Assembly: GCA_934086395.1 (NCBI GenBank)
Contig: CAKOIE010000002.1
Coordinates: 14,678-78,677 of the forward strand
From: an uncultured Bacilli bacterium
GTDB taxonomy: Bacteria; Bacillota_I; Bacilli_A; RF39; UBA660
Length of the DNA stretch: 64,000 nucleotides
Direction of reading: 5' to 3'
A program made the translations under genes and the position numbers. Shown one piece after another: positions 27,811 through 52,382 of the stretch. Numbering within the stretch: the first letter of the stretch is position 1; each line of letters opens with the position of its first letter. The notes beneath the pieces are model-generated. The model was given only the letters and a program-made list of their open reading frames with translations. It was not told where the DNA came from and ran no database searches.

Positions 27811-27848
27811 AAAAAAATAGTAAGATTAATTTCTTACTATTTTTTTAA
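27811..27848. terminator. Bidirectional terminator at the ileS 3' end (A-run, AGTAAGA..TCTTACT hairpin, T-run)
   Basis: 7-bp stem flanked by A8 upstream and T8 downstream. Overlaps the ileS stop codon. Confidence 0.55.
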
Positions 27849-30554
27849 TACATCATGACATCTAGGGCAAACATCGCCAACTAATTCATCAACATAATTC
27901 CAACATCTATTACATTTTTGACCAGATGATTTTTCAACTAAAAGATTTACATTTTCTCCTTTAGGTAATTCTTCATTAGTAAAGATAACTTTAGATACAA
28001 TCAATAATTGATGAATATATTTGCCTAATTCTTCTTTAACTAAATTGTATTTTTCTGATAAATTAAGTTTAACTTCGGCTTCTAGAGATGAACCAATAAC
28101 TTTTTCACTTCTTGCTGTTTCTAATGCTTTATTAACATCTGCTTTTATTTCGAAGAATAAATCCCATACTTTTTCATCAAAATTATAATCTTTTACTGTA
28201 GGCATATCTAATAGATGAACGCTTTCGCTCTTATTTTCACCAGGAATATATCTATATGCTTCTTCTGATGTGTAAGGTAAAATTGGAGCAAGTAATGTAA
28301 CTAAATTATTTATAATATTATATAAAACTGTTTGAACGCTTCTTCTGACTTTTGAATCAGCTTTTTCAATATATAAAATATCTTTAGTCATATCTAAGTA
28401 GAAGTTAGATAATGTGAATGAAATAAAGTTATTTGTTTCTTTATATACATTATTAAATTCATATTTACTATAGTAATCTAAAACATTTTTAGTATATTTG
28501 TTTAGTTCACTCATCATGTATTTGTCGTATGGATACATGTCAGCAAATGTAATTGTGTTTTCTTCTGGTTTGAAATCATTTAAGTTTCCTAAAATAAATT
28601 TATAGGTATTTCTAATTTTACGATAACTTTCTTGAACTTGTTTTAAGATTTCATCGCCGATACGAACATCTTCGGTATAATCTGTAGATGCTGCCCAAAG
28701 TCTTAGAACATCGGCACCTCTTTTATTGCATTCAGTTACAGGATCAATTCCATTACCTAATGATTTAGACATTTTATTACCTTTTCCATCAAGAGTGAAT
28801 CCATGGGAAATACATTCTTTGTATGGGCTTCTTCCATGAACAGCTACTCCGGTAATTAATGATGAATTAAACCATCCACGATATTGGTCAGATCCTTCTA
28901 AGTAGATGTCTGCTGGATAATCTAGACCTCTTGCACATAATACGCCAGTATGAGTTGAACCTGAATCAAACCAAACATCCATAATATCTTGTTCTTTAGT
29001 GAACTTTCCATTTGGACTTGCTGGGTTAGTATATCCTTCTGGTAATAAATCTTTCGCTTCTCTTTCAAACCAAACGTTTGAGCCATATTCTCTAAATAAA
29101 GCTGCTACATGCATCATTACATCATAATCTAAAATAGCTGAACCATCTTCATTATAGAAAATTGGTAGTGGTACTCCCCAAACTCTTTGTCTTGAAATAC
29201 ACCAGTCTCCTCTACCTTCAATCATATTATGAAGTCTTACTTTACCCCATTCTGGATGCCATTTAATATTATTTTCAATTTCATCTAAGATTTGTTTTTT
29301 AATTGGCTCGATTGAGCAGAACCACTGAGATGTTGCTCTAAAAATAATTGGTTTTTTAGTTCTCCAGTCATGTGGATATGAGTGAGTTATTTCTTTAACG
29401 CAAAGTAAATTTCCTAATTCTCTTAATTTAGTAATAATTGCTTTGTTAGCATCTTCAAAATATAGACCAGCAAATTCTTTGCCAGAGTTTTCGTTTAGTT
29501 TTCCATCATCGTTAACTCCAAAAATCATTTCTAATCCGTATTTTTTACCCCAAGCAAAGTCAACTTCACCATAACTAGGTGCTGTGTGAACTAAACCGGT
29601 TCCATCTTCATCAGATACTTCTTCTCCACAAATTACTGGACTAATTCTTTCTACTAATGGGTGAGAATATTTAACTCCTTCAATATCTTTTCCTTTAAAT
29701 CTTGAAATTTCAGTATAGTTTTCCCATTTAAATAGTAGTGTTACTTTATCAAGAAGTGTTGCTCCTACTACATAATGTTTTCCATCTACTTCTACTTTAA
29801 CATATTCAAAATCAGGATTAACGCAGATTCCAGTATTTCCTGGTAATGTCCATGGAGTTGTTGTCCAAATAACTAAATATTCTCCATTTTCTAAATAATT
29901 ATTTCCTTCACAAACTGGAAATGCAACAAAGATTGATAAATCTTTTTTATCTTTATATTCAATTTCAGCTTCTGCTAGGGCTGATTCAGAAGATGGTGAC
30001 CAATATACTGGCTTCATACCTTTAAAAATTAAACCTTTTTTAGCCATTTCAGCAAATACTTCAATTTGTTTAGCTTCTAATTCATGTTGAAATGTAGCAT
30101 AATAGTGCTCCCAATCAGCTAAGACATTTAATCTTTTAAATCCTTCCATTTGTTTAGATACTTGTTCTTTAGCATATTTTTCACAAATTGTTCTAAATTC
30201 AGCTTTTGACATTGATTTACGATCAATACCACTATTTGTAACAGCTTGTTCAATTGGTAGTCCGTGAGTATCCCATCCTGGAATATATATTACGTCTCTT
30301 CCACTCATCATATAATAACGATTAATAAAATCTTTAAGAATTTTATTCATGGCATGACCAATATGAATTGAACCATTAGCATATGGTGGTCCATCATGTA
30401 AAACGAATGGTTTCTTTCCTTTATTCTTTTCTCTAGTTTTAGCGTAAAGATTCATTTCTTCCCATTTTTGGGCTTGAATTATTTCATTTTCGCCTAAATT
30501 TCCTTTCATTTGAAATTCGGTTTTTGGCATTAATAGTGTTTCTTTGTAATCCAT
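27837..30554 (-). CDS. ileS: Isoleucine--tRNA ligase
   Basis: HIGH motif 'PYANGSIHIGHA', KMSKS motif 'KMSKSLGN' and a C-terminal zinc knuckle 'CNRCW...CPRCH'. Confidence 0.95.
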   Translation of the reverse strand: MDYKETLLMPKTEFQMKGNLGENEIIQAQKWEEMNLYAKTREKNKGKKPFVLHDGPPYANGSIHIGHAMNKILKDFINRYYMMSGRDVIYIPGWDTHGLPIEQAVTNSGIDRKSMSKAEFRTICEKYAKEQVSKQMEGFKRLNVLADWEHYYATFQHELEAKQIEVFAEMAKKGLIFKGMKPVYWSPSSESALAEAEIEYKDKKDLSIFVAFPVCEGNNYLENGEYLVIWTTTPWTLPGNTGICVNPDFEYVKVEVDGKHYVVGATLLDKVTLLFKWENYTEISRFKGKDIEGVKYSHPLVERISPVICGEEVSDEDGTGLVHTAPSYGEVDFAWGKKYGLEMIFGVNDDGKLNENSGKEFAGLYFEDANKAIITKLRELGNLLCVKEITHSYPHDWRTKKPIIFRATSQWFCSIEPIKKQILDEIENNIKWHPEWGKVRLHNMIEGRGDWCISRQRVWGVPLPIFYNEDGSAILDYDVMMHVAALFREYGSNVWFEREAKDLLPEGYTNPASPNGKFTKEQDIMDVWFDSGSTHTGVLCARGLDYPADIYLEGSDQYRGWFNSSLITGVAVHGRSPYKECISHGFTLDGKGNKMSKSLGNGIDPVTECNKRGADVLRLWAASTDYTEDVRIGDEILKQVQESYRKIRNTYKFILGNLNDFKPEENTITFADMYPYDKYMMSELNKYTKNVLDYYSKYEFNNVYKETNNFISFTLSNFYLDMTKDILYIEKADSKVRRSVQTVLYNIINNLVTLLAPILPYTSEEAYRYIPGENKSESVHLLDMPTVKDYNFDEKVWDLFFEIKADVNKALETARSEKVIGSSLEAEVKLNLSEKYNLVKEELGKYIHQLLIVSKVIFTNEELPKGENVNLLVEKSSGQKCNRCWNYVDELVGDVCPRCHDVLKK

Positions 30555-30860
30555 TTTTAACTCCTCCTTTAATTAAAAAAAGTTCATAAATATAGAGACG
30601 ACTAATCGCGGTACCACTCTACTTTATGAACTTTAATTCATACACTCTTTCTCTTAACGTGAGATTGCCGTACTTTCCTTATCCGAAAGTCACATCAGAA
30701 GTGATTTACATTATATTTTATTATATCTTAATTTCACCATATATAAGACTCTCTAAATAAACCATATAATGTCGTCTTCATCAATTGCTTTATGTCTTAA
30801 ATTATAGAATTTATTTACATGTTTGTCAATTAGTTAGTTTGACTTATGCATGTTTTATAA
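30555..30860 (-). promoter_or_regulatory. T-box riboswitch leader of ileS
   Basis: Conserved T-box sequence AGAGUGGUACCGCG on the minus strand. It is followed by terminator AGTTCATAAA...TTTATGAACT then TTTTTTT, directly upstream of the RBS GGAGGAG. Confidence 0.85.
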
Positions 30861-33985: not shown

Positions 33986-34180
33986 TTAAGCCATTGTGGT
34001 AATAATATTAAAGTTTTTGGAGTAATTATCTATTTGTTTACTCCGAAAACCAATTGCAACAATAATTATTAGTACAATTAGATAAAAAATAATTAATCCT
34101 TTATATTCTTTTAATGCGTTAGTCATTACTACCACTCCTTCCAACAATATTAATATAAACCAAACAAATGTATTTGTCAA
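33986..34180 (-). CDS. Small membrane protein (64 aa)
   Basis: Two hydrophobic helices. Function unclear. Confidence 0.35.
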   Translation of the reverse strand: MTNTFVWFILILLEGVVVMTNALKEYKGLIIFYLIVLIIIVAIGFRSKQIDNYSKNFNIITTMA

Positions 34181-40005: not shown

Positions 40006-40779
40006 TTATCTTAAATACTTTTTCATATTATTGATGGCATTTTTTTCGATACGTGATACTTGGGCTTGTGATACGCCTAAATCAGCTGCAATTTCTAACT
40101 GAGTTTTACCATAAATATATCTAGCATAAAGAACATTTCTTTCTCTCAAGTTTATTTGATTTAAGGCACCAGTTAAAGATATTGTATCATTTTGATCAAT
40201 TAAATCTTTTTTACTTGATAACTGATCTTCTAAGTAAATTGTATCTCCTCCATCATTATAAATTGGTTCAGAAATTGATACTGGTTCTATTAATGATTCT
40301 AAAGCAAGAGATAAATCATACTCAGTAATATTTAATTCATGACATATTTGTTTATTAGATGGTTCGATTCCATGTTTAAGTAAATAATTTTCTTTATATT
40401 TTAGAATTTGATAGGCTGTATCTTTAATGCTTCTAGATATTCTTACAACACTTGATTCTCTAATAAATCTTTTTACTTCTCCTAAAATAAGGGGTACTGC
40501 ATAAGTAGAAAATCGAACATCATAATCAAGTGAAAAATTATCTACTGCTTTAATTAAGCCAACTGTTCCAATTTGAAATAAATCATTCATGTCATATTTG
40601 CCACTATTATAATGTTTAATTACGCTTAAAACTAATTTAAGATTACCATTTACTATATCATCTTTAGCAAGTTTGTCTCCTTTTTGATATTTTTTAAATA
40701 ATTCAATAGTTTCTTCATTTTTTAATACTTTTAATTTGTTTGTATCAATTCCAGTTATTTCAACTTTATATTTTCCCAA
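40006..40779 (-). CDS. sigG: RNA polymerase sporulation sigma factor sigma-G
   Basis: Aligns along its length with B. subtilis SigG ('KVEITGIDTNKLKVLKNEE', 'LVNGNLKLVLSVI', 'FSTYAVPLILGEVKRFIRE', 'ISQAQVSRIEK'). Confidence 0.85.
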   Translation of the reverse strand: MGKYKVEITGIDTNKLKVLKNEETIELFKKYQKGDKLAKDDIVNGNLKLVLSVIKHYNSGKYDMNDLFQIGTVGLIKAVDNFSLDYDVRFSTYAVPLILGEVKRFIRESSVVRISRSIKDTAYQILKYKENYLLKHGIEPSNKQICHELNITEYDLSLALESLIEPVSISEPIYNDGGDTIYLEDQLSSKKDLIDQNDTISLTGALNQINLRERNVLYARYIYGKTQLEIAADLGVSQAQVSRIEKNAINNMKKYLR

Positions 40780-40890
40780 AATAAATCTCTCCTCTAATTT
40801 ATAGTGGAAAGATTTTGAGATGTTTATTCATACTTAATTATTTATTTTATTGGTCTCATGGTTTTAGCCTCTAATCGTGCATTAAAATTT

Positions 40891-41222
40891 TAACGAATAT
40901 TCATATATTTTTGTTGACTATTCTATAATCTATTTGATATATTAATTTTCAGGAACATCTAATATGTTTGAGTGATTACTCCATATCTTTATTTTTTAAA
41001 GAAAGGAGTGATTTTATGAGAAAAATTGATTATCTAATCCTTTTTCTTATAGTAATTATTTTTATATTATTATTTATTATTATTAAACTGATATAAAAAA
41101 ATCACCATAAACTTTGGGGGTTTTGGTGAAACTTTGATAAAGGGTAATCACCTAGCTATCCAAATTAGGTGTTCCTTTTTTATTTTATGTAAGTCTTACT
41201 TACGTATTCATTATAGCAAAAA
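40891..41222 (+). repeat. Tandem direct repeat unit 1 (~332 bp) containing promoter, small ORF and terminator
   Basis: About 95% identical to 41256..41590. Begins TTAACGAATATTCAT. Confidence 0.8.
41016..41096 (+). CDS. 26-aa hydrophobic peptide MRKIDYLILFLIVIIFILLFIIIKLI (type I toxin-like small membrane peptide), copy 1
   Basis: Strong RBS AAAGGAGTG 7 nt before the ATG, with promoter-like TTGACT upstream. Terminator CACCTAGCTATCCAAATTAGGTG then T7 follows. Not in the ORF track because it is short. Confidence 0.55.
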   Translation: MRKIDYLILFLIVIIFILLFIIIKLI

Positions 41223-41255
41223 ATATTTTTATCTTCAATAGTGTTACCATAATAA

Positions 41256-41590
41256 TTTAACGAATATTCATATATTTTTGTTGACTATTCTATAATCTAT
41301 TTGATATATTAATTTTCAGGAACATCTAATATGTTTGGGTGATTACTCCATATCTTTATTTTTTAAAGAAAGGAGTGATTTTATGAGAAAGATAGATTAT
41401 TTAATCCTTTTTCTTATAGTAATTATTTTTATATTGTTATTTATTATTATTAAATTAATATAAAAAAATCACCATAAACTTTGGGGGTTTTGGTGAAAAT
41501 CACAAATTAGGATAATCACCTAACTAACCAAAATTAGGTGTTCCTTTTTATTTTATGTAAGTCTTGCTTACGTATTCATTATAGCAAAAA
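41256..41590 (+). repeat. Tandem direct repeat unit 2 (~335 bp)
   Basis: Second copy of the module. Followed by TTGACGAATTTT, a truncated start of a third unit. Confidence 0.8.
41383..41463 (+). CDS. 26-aa hydrophobic peptide, copy 2 (identical peptide, 6 synonymous nucleotide differences)
   Basis: Same RBS and terminator. All differences from copy 1 inside the ORF are synonymous. Confidence 0.55.
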   Translation: MRKIDYLILFLIVIIFILLFIIIKLI

Positions 41591-41630
41591 TTTGACGAAT
41601 TTTCAAGATGCTAAAATACGCAATTTCATA

Positions 41631-42323
41631 TTATTTAACTTCCATAACTGTTTGAAGTTTTTTAATAACCTTTTTTTCAATACGTGATATGTAAGACTGA
41701 CTTATACCTAACATTGCTGCTACTTCTTTTTGAGTATATTCTTCATTATTATTTAAACCATAACGAAGTGTCATAATTTCTTTTTCACGATCATTTAATT
41801 TTACCAATTCTTTTTTTAATAAATCTTTATCTACTTTTAAAGAAAACTCATCAAATACGATATTATTATCAGTTCCTAAAATATCTTCTAAGTGCAATTC
41901 ATTACCTTCAGGATCATAGTTTATTGCATCTTCTAAAGAAACTTCTGTTTTTCTTTTTTTATTTTTGCGAATATACATTAATATTTCGTTAGCGATACAA
42001 CGAGATGCATAGGTAGCTAATCTAATATTTTTATCTGGTTTATAAGTTTCAATTCCTTTAATTAAACCAATAGATCCAATAGATACTAAATCTTCTAAGT
42101 CATAACCCGTACTTTCATATTTTTTAGCTAAAAAGACTACCAATCTAAGATTATGTTCTATAAGTTTATTTCTAGCTTGTATATCACCTTGTTTACTTTT
42201 AATAATTTCTTCAAACTCTTCTTCTTTGGATAAAGGTGGTGGTAATATATCTGCACTACCAACAAATAGTAAACTATTATCTATTTTTAACAACTTAAAT
42301 ATTAAATCAATTAATTTTCTCAT
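41631..42323 (-). CDS. sigE: RNA polymerase sporulation sigma factor sigma-E (pro-sigma-E)
   Basis: Pro-sequence then 'ALPPPLSKEEE', 'LIEHNLRLVVFLAKKY', 'ATYASRCIANEILMYIRK', 'ISQSYISRIEKK'. Matches B. subtilis SigE. Confidence 0.9.
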   Translation of the reverse strand: MRKLIDLIFKLLKIDNSLLFVGSADILPPPLSKEEEFEEIIKSKQGDIQARNKLIEHNLRLVVFLAKKYESTGYDLEDLVSIGSIGLIKGIETYKPDKNIRLATYASRCIANEILMYIRKNKKRKTEVSLEDAINYDPEGNELHLEDILGTDNNIVFDEFSLKVDKDLLKKELVKLNDREKEIMTLRYGLNNNEEYTQKEVAAMLGISQSYISRIEKKVIKKLQTVMEVK

Positions 42324-43084
42324 AGTATCTCCTTATTTAATATAATTTTTATTCCATTTATATTTACATCTGACAAACCAATTAAAGCTTTTTTTGTTTT
42401 TTTATTATTAACCATAATTTTTTGAGGGGAAAACACTTCAAGTAAATCTTTATTATTAACAGTGTAATACGGAACTAAAAATGTTTTAATATGATCATCT
42501 ATTAAAGATGAATTTACTAAAATGATTGGTTTATGAAAGTAAGGATCTTTTAATTTATTACCAGTATCTAAAAAGGCAGTATCTTTAATAACTTTATCAT
42601 TATAGTATATTTCAATATTGTAATAGTTTTGATATTCAATTTGATAATGTTTTTGTTTATTAATAAATTTAATTATAATAAATGGACTAATTAATAAAAG
42701 TAAATAAAGATTTATTTTTAAACCATTATTTTCAAAGATATACCCTTTATTTGACAAAGTAACTGTATCATTAAGTAAGTAAATTGTTCCACCTAAAATA
42801 ATACTAAGAATATATAAATAAATAAGATTATCTTTAAAATAATTAAAGTTTTGATATTTAAAACTAATAATTATCATAATAATACTAGTTATTAACTTAT
42901 ACATTAATAATAACATGTTATTGTTTAGATAAAATAATAGTATAGTTGATAATGAACCAATAATAGAAGCAATAATTATACGAAATATATTTGGTTTTCT
43001 TTTTAATAAAACTGATACACCAATTAAAAGTAATAAATCTATTAAAAAATTAAATAAAATAATTAAATCAACATATATTACCAT
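42320..43084 (-). CDS. spoIIGA: Sigma-E processing peptidase SpoIIGA
   Basis: Five N-terminal transmembrane helices and a C-terminal aspartic protease motif 'FLDTGN'. Overlaps sigE by 4 nt. Confidence 0.8.
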   Translation of the reverse strand: MVIYVDLIILFNFLIDLLLLIGVSVLLKRKPNIFRIIIASIIGSLSTILLFYLNNNMLLLMYKLITSIIMIIISFKYQNFNYFKDNLIYLYILSIILGGTIYLLNDTVTLSNKGYIFENNGLKINLYLLLLISPFIIIKFINKQKHYQIEYQNYYNIEIYYNDKVIKDTAFLDTGNKLKDPYFHKPIILVNSSLIDDHIKTFLVPYYTVNNKDLLEVFSPQKIMVNNKKTKKALIGLSDVNINGIKIILNKEIL

Positions 43085-43128
43085 TTACCATCACCATTTA
43101 GATTATAAAATATAGAAATTTAAAAAAA

Positions 43129-43266
43129 TGTCGAAAAAAATTGTAGTATCTTAACTTTATTTATTTTTCATTAGCTGTTATTTACGACAAAATAATTAAA
43201 AATAAAGCACTATTAAAAAAATTAAACATCCAATATTATACCCAAAAAATGGTTTTATTAAGACAA
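43129..43266 (-). promoter_or_regulatory. Candidate spoIIG promoter region with Spo0A boxes
   Basis: 0A-box TGTCGAA at 43129-43135 (on the + strand). TTGTCGTAA on the minus strand at 43182-43190. Minus-strand TTGTCT -35 (43261-43266) and TGgGTATAAT -10 (43235-43240) are separated by a 20-nt spacer, as in the B. subtilis spoIIG promoter. Confidence 0.4.
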
Positions 43267-43314
43267 GCAACTATCACCTAGATCCAATAAAAAAATAACT
43301 CAAAAAAGTTATTT

Positions 43315-43722
43315 TTATTTTCCTTTATTTTCTGTTTTTTCTAATTTAGCAACAGTTTCATTTAAAACTTCAATAGTTTTCTTTCTAACATCAGAAGCAG
43401 CTTTTTCCAAAACAGGAGTTCCTTTTTCAACAGCTAAATTATATAAATCATTAGCTTTCTTTTCAATCTCTTTACCTTTTTTCTTAACAACAGAAACTAC
43501 CTTTTCCTTATCTAAATCTTTTAATTCTTTTTGGATCTCATTAATAGATTTTTCAATAGAATCTTTTACATCATCATATTCAATATCTTTAGCTTTTTCC
43601 CAAAGATTTTTCATCTTATCAACTAAATCCTTTCTAGTATCTTCACCCTTTTTTGGTGCAAATAACAATCCTAATGTAGCACCTACTGCAAGTCCAGCAA
43701 ATAATCCACCTTTTTTACTCAT
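43315..43722 (-). CDS. YtxH domain-containing protein
   Basis: N-terminal 'GGLFAGLAVGATLGLLFAPKKGEDTRK' followed by a coiled-coil Lys/Glu-rich region. Confidence 0.65.
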   Translation of the reverse strand: MSKKGGLFAGLAVGATLGLLFAPKKGEDTRKDLVDKMKNLWEKAKDIEYDDVKDSIEKSINEIQKELKDLDKEKVVSVVKKKGKEIEKKANDLYNLAVEKGTPVLEKAASDVRKKTIEVLNETVAKLEKTENKGK

Positions 43723-44005
43723 AATCGTCTTCCTCTTCCTTTCTCTTCTTTAAACTTACAATTTTATTGACAATTCCTTTTACAAAACCAGCAACATAAT
43801 CAGTAAGAAATCCAATTTTATTAGTAAATAAATCAAAAACATTAAAAACTTTATCTAGACTTTTTACTTTCTTAGTTACATCATCAATTAAATAATTGAA
43901 ATTGTCTATTGTAATTATAAGTTTAATTCCTAAAATAATACCTATAACTAATAAAATAATAAGTAAAATATAAATAATAATTGGTAATACTTCCATTAAT
44001 GTCAT
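43715..44005 (-). CDS. DUF948-like membrane-anchored protein
   Basis: Single N-terminal transmembrane helix and a charged C-terminus. Overlaps the neighbouring genes. Confidence 0.5.
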   Translation of the reverse strand: MTLMEVLPIIIYILLIILLVIGIILGIKLIITIDNFNYLIDDVTKKVKSLDKVFNVFDLFTNKIGFLTDYVAGFVKGIVNKIVSLKKRKEEEDDYE

Positions 44006-44880
44006 TATTCTTCTTCCTCCTCGTCCTTATTTTCATACATAGAATCTATTAAGTTAAATAAATCTTTTTCTAAAGTATCATCTTCATCATCTTTTGTTGT
44101 TTCTTCAATTTTTTTATCTTCTACTATAGGCATTTCAGATGTAGTCTCTACTTCTTCATTTTCACTTACAAATTCTTCTTTACTAATTTCTTCAGGAACT
44201 TCAGGCAAAATATCATCTTCTAATGGTTTTTCTTTTTGAATCTCTTGATTACTAATGAGAATTTCATCTAATGTCTTTAAAGGTTCAGCAAATTCATCAT
44301 CTACCTTTTTATTTTCTACTTCTTTTTTCTTTTCATACGCTTTTTTTCTAACATCTTCTAAACTTGGTCCCTTTACTCCTGTATCTGTTTTAATAATTAC
44401 ATCATCTTTAGTATAATTTTGATTTAAAACCCCATAAACAGGAGAAATTACTGGAGACGGAGTAAATATCTTTTTCTTTTCTTCTTTCTTTTGCTGTAAA
44501 AATTTAGAATAATCTCTAGGTTGTTCTCTCTTTCTTTCAGGTTCTTTGACAACATATTCATCTTTATTTCTTCTAGGAACATCATAATCATCATCAAAAA
44601 AGCTACTATTACTACTTGATTGTGAGTAACTATTACGTTTATTAACACTCAATTCCTTATCACTTCTAGTTGGTAGATCATCATCGAAATCTAAAGGAAA
44701 ATTAAAGTTACTTGTCTTTTTTTGAGGTTCACTAACAATATCATCATCCTTATCTTCAACAGGCATTTTAACCTCTTTTATCGGATTACTTTCCTTTACA
44801 ACACTCTTTTTCTCATAAGTAGTTTCCTCATCTTCATCAATATCAAATAATACATCTTTTATTTTCTTAAAAACACTCAT
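44005..44880 (-). CDS. Acidic low-complexity protein, hypothetical
   Basis: 291 aa, highly acidic. N-terminus 'MSVFKKIKDVLFDIDEDEE' resembles the SepF N-terminal helix, but no SepF core domain is present. Confidence 0.4.
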   Translation of the reverse strand: MSVFKKIKDVLFDIDEDEETTYEKKSVVKESNPIKEVKMPVEDKDDDIVSEPQKKTSNFNFPLDFDDDLPTRSDKELSVNKRNSYSQSSSNSSFFDDDYDVPRRNKDEYVVKEPERKREQPRDYSKFLQQKKEEKKKIFTPSPVISPVYGVLNQNYTKDDVIIKTDTGVKGPSLEDVRKKAYEKKKEVENKKVDDEFAEPLKTLDEILISNQEIQKEKPLEDDILPEVPEEISKEEFVSENEEVETTSEMPIVEDKKIEETTKDDEDDTLEKDLFNLIDSMYENKDEEEEE

Positions 44881-44883
44881 TAG

Positions 44884-45528
44884 TTATTCTCCTTTTATTA
44901 AATCATAATCTGGTACTTCATCATCTTTATAATTATCATACTCTTCAACTACCTTTAAGAAGTTTGAATCTTTTGAATTAGTCTCAAATATATTAAAACT
45001 CTCTTCACTATAGTTAAGTACATCTTCCTCAAGTAAATTTCCAATTATATCATCATTATACTCTACTGAAGATAAAATAATTAAACTATTTGCAATAGCA
45101 TTAGCAATATCATTACTATCTACTATTACTTCTATTTTAGCATAATTATACATTATTTCAATTAAATATTTATCATTTTTTACATTTATTTCAATATATC
45201 CACTCTTATTATCATAATTAATTAACTCACTCATATAAACATTATCTTTAACTTTATAACTATTTTCCACCTTATGATAATAACTAACAATATCTACAAA
45301 CATATAATATTTAAGATTATTTTCTCTAAACACTATATTTCTCTCATTAATTTTATCTATCACTAAATTAGATGGCAAATAAAATTTATAACCATTTTTA
45401 TATTCATTAGCGTTATTACTTTTACTAGATATAACTTTATTAATAATTTGTTCAACATTATTATTATCTATTTTAGTACAACCACACAATAAGGTTACAC
45501 TAAATATTAATATTATTATTTTCTTCAT
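44884..45528 (-). CDS. Putative lipoprotein
   Basis: Lipobox LLCGC. Confidence 0.5.
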   Translation of the reverse strand: MKKIIILIFSVTLLCGCTKIDNNNVEQIINKVISSKSNNANEYKNGYKFYLPSNLVIDKINERNIVFRENNLKYYMFVDIVSYYHKVENSYKVKDNVYMSELINYDNKSGYIEINVKNDKYLIEIMYNYAKIEVIVDSNDIANAIANSLIILSSVEYNDDIIGNLLEEDVLNYSEESFNIFETNSKDSNFLKVVEEYDNYKDDEVPDYDLIKGE

Positions 45529-51820: not shown

Positions 51821-51867
51821 GTATATTAAAAAAGAATAAAGCCATAATTATAAATGGAGGAAAAATA

Positions 51868-52080
51868 ATGAAAAAAGTACCATGCATGTTATCTACTAAA
51901 GATACATCTTACATTGAAGATATGTTTAACTGGAATATAACAGCATATCAAAAATGTGAAGAATATTTAAAAAAAGTAACTAACAAAGAACTACAATCAG
52001 AACTTAAAAAAATAAGTAAAATGCATTATAAAAATTGTGATAAGTTAGTTAAATATATAGGAGGTTTTATTAATGAATGA
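51868..52080 (+). CDS. Small spore-coat-associated protein (partner of the CotF-like protein)
   Basis: 70 aa. Overlaps the downstream CotF-like ORF by 8 nt. Confidence 0.4.
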   Translation: MKKVPCMLSTKDTSYIEDMFNWNITAYQKCEEYLKKVTNKELQSELKKISKMHYKNCDKLVKYIGGFINE

Positions 52081-52330
52081 TAAATTTATTCTATATGATA
52101 TGTTAAATACTGAAAAAAACATGAAAATAAATACAGCAACTGCTTTAAATGAAGCATCATGTGATGAAATATATGATTTATATCATGAAATGTTTGAAGA
52201 TATCTCAACATCTGCCAAAAACTTATTTACCATTGGCTTTAATAATAATTGGTACACCTTAGAAGAAACAAACCAAACTAAAATTAAAGAAAGCCATACT
52301 AAACTAAAGAATTCTTTAAAAGAAGAATAA
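52073..52330 (+). CDS. Spore coat protein F (Coat_F domain) family
   Basis: 'DMLNTEKNMKINTATALNEASCDEIYDLYHEMFEDISTSAKNLFTIGFNNNWY' matches the Coat F pattern. Confidence 0.55.
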   Translation: MNDKFILYDMLNTEKNMKINTATALNEASCDEIYDLYHEMFEDISTSAKNLFTIGFNNNWYTLEETNQTKIKESHTKLKNSLKEE

Positions 52331-52333
52331 TAC

Positions 52334-52372
52334 TTAAAAAAGATACTTGTATATTTATTCAAGTATCTTTAA
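52334..52372. terminator. Bidirectional terminator AGATACTTG..CAAGTATCT
   Basis: 9-bp stem flanked by an A-run and a T-run. Sits between the CotF-like gene and the paralog-2 gene. Confidence 0.5.
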
Positions 52373-52382
52373 TTATTTCTTT

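Follow-up and report, generated by a model that had tools for sequence, protein, structure and literature searches.

Tandem cassettes between sigE and sigG

The window analyzed here is a stretch of 64,000 nucleotides from an uncultured Bacilli bacterium (assembly GCA_934086395.1, contig CAKOIE010000002.1, positions 14,678 to 78,677 of the forward strand). Its largest intergenic gap, 851 bp at positions 40780-41630, is bordered by sigG (40006-40779, minus strand) and by sigE (41631-42323, minus strand), the latter with spoIIGA (42320-43084, minus strand) upstream. On the strand opposite to sigG and sigE, the gap holds two direct copies of a cassette encoding a peptide of 26 amino acids, which we describe as a candidate type I toxin-antitoxin system. 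Based on the repeats, a pairwise comparison and an alignment of ten copies, the sigG-proximal copy 1 extends from 40889 to 41238, i.e., from a terminal direct repeat to the −35 element of an antisense promoter, and the sigE-proximal copy 2 from 41256 to 41606 (both plus strand).

The homologous unit measures approximately 334 nt (40889-41222 and 41256-41590) and appears as two pairs of direct repeats, 40883-41131/41250-41498 (96% identical, spacing 367) and 41141-41222/41509-41590 (spacing 368). An earlier note on this DNA had reported two direct repeats of about 335 bp. This was confirmed for the unit; the period is 367-368, since a non-homologous linker of approximately 30 nt separates the units. 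The note had also named the truncated start of a third copy. A match to the start of the unit does exist at 41591-41610, but it comprises merely about 20 nt, of which 15 are identical, and this stub overlaps the −35 region of an antisense promoter. The output of Tandem Repeats Finder was empty, although the two repeat units are real. The window contained no additional cassette copies in exact searches or in searches allowing three mismatches, and the antisense RNA described below, used as a covariance model on the window and 23 loci, returned known copies only.

The two-copy arrangement recurs in an independently obtained assembly (L001; 99.7% identity along 12.7 kb), with no differences in the cassette. 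The Logan contig L002, 100% identical to window positions 41542-45188, ends within copy 2. This indicates that the tandem repeat breaks short-read assemblies, and copy number in metagenome-assembled genomes (MAGs) may consequently be under-called. Further, every cassette, single copies included, is bounded by an imperfect direct repeat of approximately 16 nt, TTAACGAAT(A/T)T(T/C)CA, located at 40889-40904, 41256-41271 and 41594-41609 in the window and at either end of the lone cassettes of L004 and L007; its 3′ occurrence overlaps the antisense −35 element. The terminal repeat could have been left behind by the original insertion or by the collapse of a longer tandem array.

Coding potential of the 26-amino-acid open reading frame

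Each copy contains a plus-strand open reading frame (ORF) of 26 codons, ORF 1 at 41016-41096 and ORF 2 at 41383-41463. Both encode the same peptide, MRKIDYLILFLIVIIFILLFIIIKLI, in which a charged N-terminus is followed by an 18-residue hydrophobic core (Y6-I23) with one predicted transmembrane helix; the grand average of hydropathy is 2.5. An AGGAGT motif sits 6 nt ahead of the ATG, so that Shine-Dalgarno (SD) sequence and start codon are proper for the type I toxin class.

As the earlier note had observed, the two ORFs differ at six nucleotides, all of them synonymous, for which we calculated P = 5e-5 to 3e-4 under random substitution. The upstream non-coding sequence is nearly invariant, again as claimed, with one difference in 127 nt, and none occurs in the 35 nt after the stop codon (ORF versus flanks, Fisher p=0.006). 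Across nine copies with an intact promoter from six species, 11 ORF sites vary, nine synonymously and two non-synonymously (V13I and I23N; binomial 4.6e-5), and seven of the variable sites fall at third codon positions. In comparison to the two most distant species (L003 and L006), the synonymous third positions of sigG and sigE are 0.73-0.76 identical to the window, the ORF 0.95-0.96 and the hairpins of the cassette 0.93-1.0. The 5′ untranslated region (UTR) reaches 0.93-0.94 in L006, where it is intact, and 0.80 in L003, where its 5′ end is deleted. An internal spacer of approximately 20 nt is merely 0.56-0.61 identical. A spacer evolving as if neutral inside an otherwise frozen cassette argues for purifying selection and against recent transfer. 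Judged by its substitution pattern, the ORF is confirmed as a real, selected coding sequence, in agreement with the earlier note.

A sceptical explanation would be that the ORF is incidental and the repeats, lying in AT-rich DNA, are non-coding intergenic sequence or an artefact of assembly. Hydrophobic pseudo-ORFs are easily obtained at 24% GC, where any frame reads rich in I, L, F and K, the L002 assembly breaks inside the repeat, and the ORF is uncalled in a collection of 5.8 billion proteins (a TTG-extended version of 42 amino acids had no homologue either). However, variation is concentrated at synonymous sites in this frame alone, and the other five frames of the region are full of stops. 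The arrangement also recurs in independent assemblies and species, the spacer appears neutral while the rest of the cassette is conserved, and the ORF decays solely where the promoter is lost (see below). We therefore consider this explanation very improbable.

Profile searches gave no family assignment. The peptide produced only noise against Pfam, NCBIfam and PADLOC, the latter meaning no match to anti-phage defence proteins. By profile hidden Markov model (HMM), TxpA/BsrG, BsrE/BsrH and YonT were not recovered from Pfam or NCBIfam at E<=10 beyond noise, and Fst/Ldr, Ibs, ShoB and TisB had no Pfam-A or NCBIfam match. For Hok/Gef, the HokA model NF007290 reached E=0.49 and 10.5 bits against a cutoff of 89. 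The comparison with Fst, Ibs and TxpA-like toxins made in the earlier note does not hold as family membership, since no HMM matched; these toxins serve as analogies only.

Sense promoter and predicted fold of the mRNA

Both repeats contain a sigma-A-like promoter, as the earlier note had stated. It reads TTGACT-18-TATATT with a TG extension and lies at 40914-40943 in copy 1 (predicted start near 40950) and at 41281-41310 in copy 2 (predicted start near 41317), both on the plus strand. Its hexamers are kept in nine copies, in L005 even despite an unrelated spacer and upstream sequence. The predicted mRNAs would comprise approximately 237 nt in copy 1 (40950-41186, minimum free energy −63.8 kcal/mol, z=-5.9) and 238 nt in copy 2 (41317-41554, −68.7 kcal/mol, z=-7.2), with terminator hairpins followed by a U-run at 41149-41171 and 41517-41540, respectively. 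A simple terminator scan of the locus found no terminator because its loop limit was 3-8 nt and the loops here have 7-10 nt.

A consensus fold of nine copies contains 82 pairs, with 99.6% of the cells paired. Nucleotides 2-14 form a 13-bp 5′-3′ clamp with the 3′ arm of the terminator (in copy 1, 40951-40963 with 41164-41176), paired in 100% of cells, with four wobble-compatible one-sided changes and no double change. Nucleotides 17-28 pair with the sequence directly after the stop codon, and the AUG region pairs with codons 10-14. The earlier note had proposed that ACUCC could sequester the GGAGU of the ribosome binding site; this pairing (copy 1: 40978-40982 with 41005-41009) was found in single-sequence folds as well as in the consensus fold, it is invariant in the nine folded copies, and the predicted probability of the SD being unpaired is 0.00-0.07 in all four modelled copies. 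Variable columns make up 11% of the paired and 50% of the unpaired positions (p=4e-11), and 14 of 17 variable paired positions still pair (binomial 0.006).

A predicted convergent antisense RNA

On the minus strand, beyond the mRNA terminator, each copy has a second promoter with a TG extension, TTGAAG-17-TATAAT at 41210-41238 in copy 1 and TTGAAA-17-TATAAT at 41578-41606 in copy 2 (11 of 12 consensus positions). The hexamers and the TG of the consensus TTGAA[A/G]-17-TGnTATAAT are kept in all ten aligned copies, and the promoter spacer falls into two unrelated sequence classes around these constant hexamers. The hairpin after the stop codon (copy 1, 41102-41128; copy 2, 41469-41495) is followed by U7 on the minus strand, is invariant across copies and has the structure of a minus-strand terminator. 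The earlier note had described a small hairpin and then an intrinsic terminator behind the ORF. Both hairpins are present, but the small one is this minus-strand terminator.

From the promoter and terminator conserved in every copy, we predict the cis-encoded antisense RNA which the note had suggested looking for. It would comprise approximately 113 nt in copy 1 (41091-41203, minus strand; covariance-model match 137.7 bits) and 114 nt in copy 2 (41458-41571, minus strand; fold z=-3.7), consisting of a 5′ hairpin, a middle hairpin and the terminator hairpin. It is complementary to approximately 90 nt of the toxin 3′UTR, from just past the stop codon to the mRNA terminator. The middle hairpin has one compensatory change from C-G to U-A (L008_c1), and substitutions in the 5′ hairpin of L003 and the middle hairpin of L006_c2 yield U-G wobbles on the minus strand and C.A mismatches on the plus strand. 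The compensatory pair and these strand-specific wobbles indicate that the minus strand is the one under selection. At the sequence level, the cassette appears to include a cis-encoded antisense RNA gene with its own promoter and terminator overlapping the toxin mRNA. For the cassette, Rfam 15 gave no match at gathering score and none of note at E<=10 (best E 0.71, 22.7 bits versus a cutoff of 99).

The only fast-evolving part of the cassette is the spacer and loop at 41132-41163 (copy 1) and 41499-41533 (copy 2). Three discrete types are common to several species, namely type A (win_c1, L004, L005, L008_c2), type B (win_c2, L006_c2) and type C (L003, L008_c1), and tandem partners are always of different type. 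Predicted cognate duplexes have −155 to −159 kcal/mol and non-cognate ones −114 to −122 kcal/mol, a gap of 33-45 kcal/mol. According to these energies, the variable spacer and loop would set the specificity of cognate RNA-RNA pairing. Types shared across species together with differing partners suggest an old duplication kept for discrimination.

Distribution and a promoter-deleted lineage

We scanned GTDB, represented by one genome per species, with a degenerate pattern for MRKIDYLILF. It matched six other species-level uncultured human-gut MAGs labelled Bacilli, Bacillales or Tenericutes, in all of them between sigE and sigG on the opposite strand. A looser pattern, applied to a metagenome collection, added four contigs with the site unchanged, so the conserved position next to sigG which the earlier note had proposed to check holds in all of these. 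L003, L004, L005 and L007 have one cassette each, L006 and L008 have two. The public MAG records label the source lineage, with approximately 24% GC, as Tenericutes, Bacilli or Bacillales, yet spoIIGA, sigE and sigG are present.

Sister lineages lack the cassette. At 90%, 88% and 86% SigE identity, a major facilitator superfamily (MFS) transporter gene is found between sigE and sigG; at 87% and 85%, the spacer between both genes measures 51-55 bp; at 82%, polA follows sigE. We conclude that the cassette is an insertion confined to one genus-level clade, with one locus per genome. The sigE-sigG junction is variable in general (MFS gene in L014-L016, L022 and L023; 51-55-bp spacer in L018, L019, L024 and L025; polA in L020 and L021), and ftsA-ftsZ precede spoIIGA in the sister lineages L018 and L020, not in the cassette-bearing genus. 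A phage or plasmid origin was rejected. Four pattern scans of IMG/VR yielded nothing apart from a single chance match, located in a GC-rich gene that is unrelated (L009), and all blastn matches to phage and plasmid sequences were AT-rich chance matches of approximately 45 nt.

Within the genus, L003, L010, L011, L012, L026 and L027 have lost the sense promoter together with the initial 14 nt of the mRNA through a shared deletion of approximately 70 nt. Their ORFs carry the substitutions R2K, V13A, I23N and K24N/I. In L010, L011, L026 and L027 the stop codon is lost and the ORF extends to 37 amino acids; L012 has a 1-nt frameshift. Altogether, seven non-synonymous or disruptive changes stand against two synonymous ones in this group (Fisher p=0.02 versus the intact group). 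From the stop codon to the predicted antisense start, only two sites vary, and the antisense hexamers are unchanged. The earlier note had held that homologous loci with a broken ORF in a persisting repeat would speak against a gene. Such loci do exist (L012 and L010/L011/L026/L027), but solely where the promoter is deleted, which points to a pseudogenised toxin rather than to a non-coding sequence. This pattern would be expected of an inactivated toxin gene whose antisense half was retained.

Relation to sigG and sporulation

The earlier note had further linked the cassette to read-through from the spoIIG operon into sigG. In Bacillus subtilis, transcription of spoIIG runs on into sigG, and a large hairpin prevents this read-through RNA from being translated (PMC5942855). 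This link is weak here, considering that the cassette has minus-strand terminators of its own, that the candidate sigG promoter lies outside of it and that sister lineages do without it. The promoter region in question (40780-40830, minus strand; also in L003-L007, L012 and L024) contains a candidate sigma-F/G promoter, GAATA-N18-CACTATA, at most 45 nt from the sigG start and beside the sigG SD. It does not vary within the genus, and a sister lineage without the cassette has it in the recognizable form GAATA-N18-CACTCTT. Because this conserved motif sits outside, we rejected a sigG promoter within the cassette. A general antisense function between sigE and sigG was rejected as well, given the sister lineages without cassette, and a dedicated role in the control of sigG is not supported because close relatives lack it. 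A paper on Clostridium acetobutylicum combining antisense RNA with sigE and sigG concerns engineered knock-downs and is not relevant. As read from the sequence of the 55-bp spacer of L018, the sigG SD appears able to pair with an upstream GCUUC.

On reading the sequence, the antisense terminator of copy 2 is the first terminator-like hairpin downstream of sigE, no hairpin with a U-run was seen in 41572-41630, and the only terminator-like hairpins seen between sigE and sigG belong to the cassette. The spoIIG transcripts probably end in the cassette and would then carry antitoxin sequence in their 3′UTR.

This arrangement allows for an explanation in which the selected function is transcriptional, the cassette acting as a bidirectional terminator or insulator that ends the spoIIGA-sigE transcript and shields sigG, with plus-strand transcription opposing any read-through and the peptide being secondary. 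The hairpin following sigE, the necessity in B. subtilis to keep the read-through untranslated and the promoter-deleted lineage, in which the antisense and terminator half is nearly unchanged while the ORF decays, would agree with it. However, an insulator leaves unexplained the codon-level selection on the ORF, the conserved SD and anti-SD and a sense promoter kept in nine copies. Moreover, close relatives manage with a 51-55-bp spacer, and the candidate sigG promoter is no part of the cassette and occurs even in a relative without it. We regard an insulator as the selected function as improbable.

A combination of both functions, in which the cassette is wired into sporulation, spoIIG transcripts with an antitoxin 3′UTR also silence the toxin and the cassette insulates sigG, appears doubtful. 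If it were true, Spo0A-driven transcription of spoIIG would silence the toxin and its loss would release it. The antisense and terminator half would then have a host function of its own, explaining its conservation where toxin promoter and ORF have decayed. The fixed position between sigE and sigG makes such a link between toxin-antitoxin system and sporulation cascade testable.

A putative type I toxin-antitoxin cassette

Taken together, we consider it likely that each repeat is a type I toxin-antitoxin-like cassette, with toxicity of the peptide and its repression by RNA being inferred. The earlier note had seen a short hydrophobic peptide with the mRNA organization of type I toxins. The conserved sequestration of SD and AUG, the selection on the ORF and the predicted antisense RNA support this. 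What we observed are the sequence elements, their conservation, the signature of selection in the ORF and the predicted folds.

From these, the following mechanism may be proposed. The sigma-A-type promoter would drive a plus-strand mRNA of approximately 237 nt for a single-helix membrane peptide of 26 residues, the presumed toxin. At full length, this mRNA would be translationally closed, with the 3′ arm of the terminator holding its first 13 nt, the following 12 nt paired just 3′ of the stop codon, the SD held by ACUCC:GGAGU and the AUG buried in a hairpin with codons 10-14. The convergent minus-strand promoter would produce an RNA of approximately 113 nt ending at the hairpin and U7 after the stop codon. 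Pairing of both RNAs would create a long duplex, a substrate for RNase III, and would displace the 5′ clamp. By prediction, the anti-SD helix blocking the SD would also become longer, similar to bsrG/SR4; with the 3′UTR blocked in silico, it grew from 5 to 8-9 bp, and the probability of nucleotides 1-14 being unpaired rose from 0.1 to 0.5. Owing to the fast-evolving spacer and loop, each antisense RNA of the tandem pair would prefer its own mRNA. Both transcripts and their interaction are to be understood as inferred.

Alternatively, the peptide might be a non-toxic small membrane protein, e.g., one modulating sporulation or a membrane complex, which is tuned by a cis-antisense RNA without any toxin-antitoxin logic. 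The cassette is chromosomal, restricted to a single locus, vertically inherited in one genus and placed beside sporulation genes, and small membrane proteins of Clostridioides difficile promote sporulation without being toxins (bioRxiv 10.64898/2026.06.10.731418). However, silencing in several layers, here 5′-3′ clamp, anti-SD, buried AUG and a 3′-overlapping antisense RNA, is a hallmark of toxic peptides (PMC5416894, PMC3834814) and unusual for ordinary small proteins. The loss of promoter and ORF in one lineage which kept the antisense half, and the sister lineages without the cassette, agree better with a dispensable or harmful gene than with one of core function. In addition, the sense promoter is sigma-A-like and not of a sporulation-sigma type. 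A non-toxic membrane protein thus seems unlikely to us.

Several observations weigh against a toxin-antitoxin cassette. The peptide, a presumed toxin, fits no toxin family by HMM, and the transcripts of both strands are sequence predictions. The locus is single, vertically inherited and off prophage or plasmid, in which it differs from many Bacillus type I systems. In all modelled states, nascent intermediates included, the SD is predicted to be closed. Double compensatory changes were not found in the mRNA fold; all changes were one-sided wobbles among sequences 85-99% related, so that the covariation support is indirect. The terminators of sense and antisense RNA are weak (about −8 kcal/mol) and have large loops. 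Finally, 35 promoter-like matches were found and 36.9 were expected from shuffled sequence at 24% GC, hence the promoter calls rest on conservation only. Nevertheless, we favor the toxin-antitoxin cassette over the explanations discussed above.

By sequence, the candidate would be a new family, and by architecture one of a known kind; it is genus-restricted and was previously unannotated. It would add a type I family without Rfam, Pfam or NCBIfam match from an uncultured, AT-rich, spore-forming human-gut lineage in which, to our knowledge, no type I toxin-antitoxin systems have been described. The genus also provides a natural comparative series, comprising loci with one copy or two, three spacer types that cross species borders, and a lineage without the sense promoter in which the ORF decays and the antisense half is intact.

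Other features of the window

Three further observations concern regions of the window away from the cassette. An intergenic ORF of 46 amino acids at 33986-34126 (minus strand), MTNALKEYKGLIIFYLIVLIIIVAIGFRSKQIDNYSKNFNIITTMA, has an AGGAG SD and one hydrophobic helix and may be another unannotated small membrane protein. A T-box leader at 30591-30793 (minus strand; 96 bits versus a gathering score of 93) lies upstream of an ORF of 905 amino acids at 27837-30554. The second-largest gap in a map of ORFs of at least 90 amino acids, 51821-52382, contains two plus-strand ORFs shorter than 90 amino acids, with an SD-like GGAGG before each.

Comparison with known type I systems

The closest layout is that of bsrG/SR4 and of txpA/RatA, bsrE/SR5 and yonT/SR6 of B. 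subtilis. As in these convergent systems (PMC6562991), an antisense RNA of approximately 100 nt with its own promoter would overlap the 3′ part of the mRNA for a small single-helix toxin peptide, in our case by about 90 nt, and the SD is placed in a short helix which lengthens when the antitoxin binds. Binding of SR4 lengthens this helix in bsrG mRNA from 4 to 8 bp (PMC3834814), and the duplex of antitoxin and toxin mRNA is an expected target of RNase III (PMC3531473, PMC6562991). In contrast to the Bacillus systems, the cassette lies outside prophages and skin-like elements and shows no sequence similarity to them at peptide or RNA level. Its peptide is shorter (26 amino acids) with only K-L-I after the hydrophobic core, and the cassette adds the 5′-3′ clamp, the 3′ arm of which is part of the antitoxin target.

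This clamp resembles hok/Sok of plasmid R1 and aapA1/IsoA1 of Helicobacter pylori, in which the full-length mRNA is inert by its fold through pairing of the ends and sequestration of the SD, and successive local hairpins keep the nascent RNA closed (PMC5416894, PMC6733600, PMC9841398). For aapA1, the full-length mRNA is untranslatable through its fold (PMC5416894). The long-range closure of the cassette mRNA is a prediction and its likeness to Hok/Gef an analogy in mechanism only. Sequence similarity is absent, the cassette belongs to a Firmicute, and the antitoxins of hok/Sok and aapA1/IsoA1 target the 5′ region of a 3′-processed, activated mRNA, whereas the antisense RNA of the cassette covers the 3′UTR.

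Adjacent copies with near-identical toxins are also known from zorO-orzO/zorP-orzP, ibs/Sib and ldr/Rdl. In loci of the zor/orz type, a short divergent interaction stretch favors cognate pairing, and the duplicated zor/orz locus contains tandem paralogues which discriminate between partners (PMC3919570). These loci are, however, enterobacterial with 5′-overlapping or divergent antitoxins, and for the cassette, discrimination is a prediction from energies only. Type I modules of C. difficile likewise belong to gut spore-forming Firmicutes and combine small hydrophobic toxins with cis-antisense RNAs (PMC6563280, PMC5961336); they adjoin CRISPR arrays (PMC5961336). Their toxins have no detectable homology to the cassette peptide. 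The C. difficile modules are also found within prophages, and their toxins have about 50 amino acids. Compared with all of these systems, the cassette would join a clamp in the style of hok and aapA1 to a 3′-overlapping antitoxin in the style of bsrG/SR4 that is aimed at the clamp arm, and may provide a compact model of RNA strand displacement.

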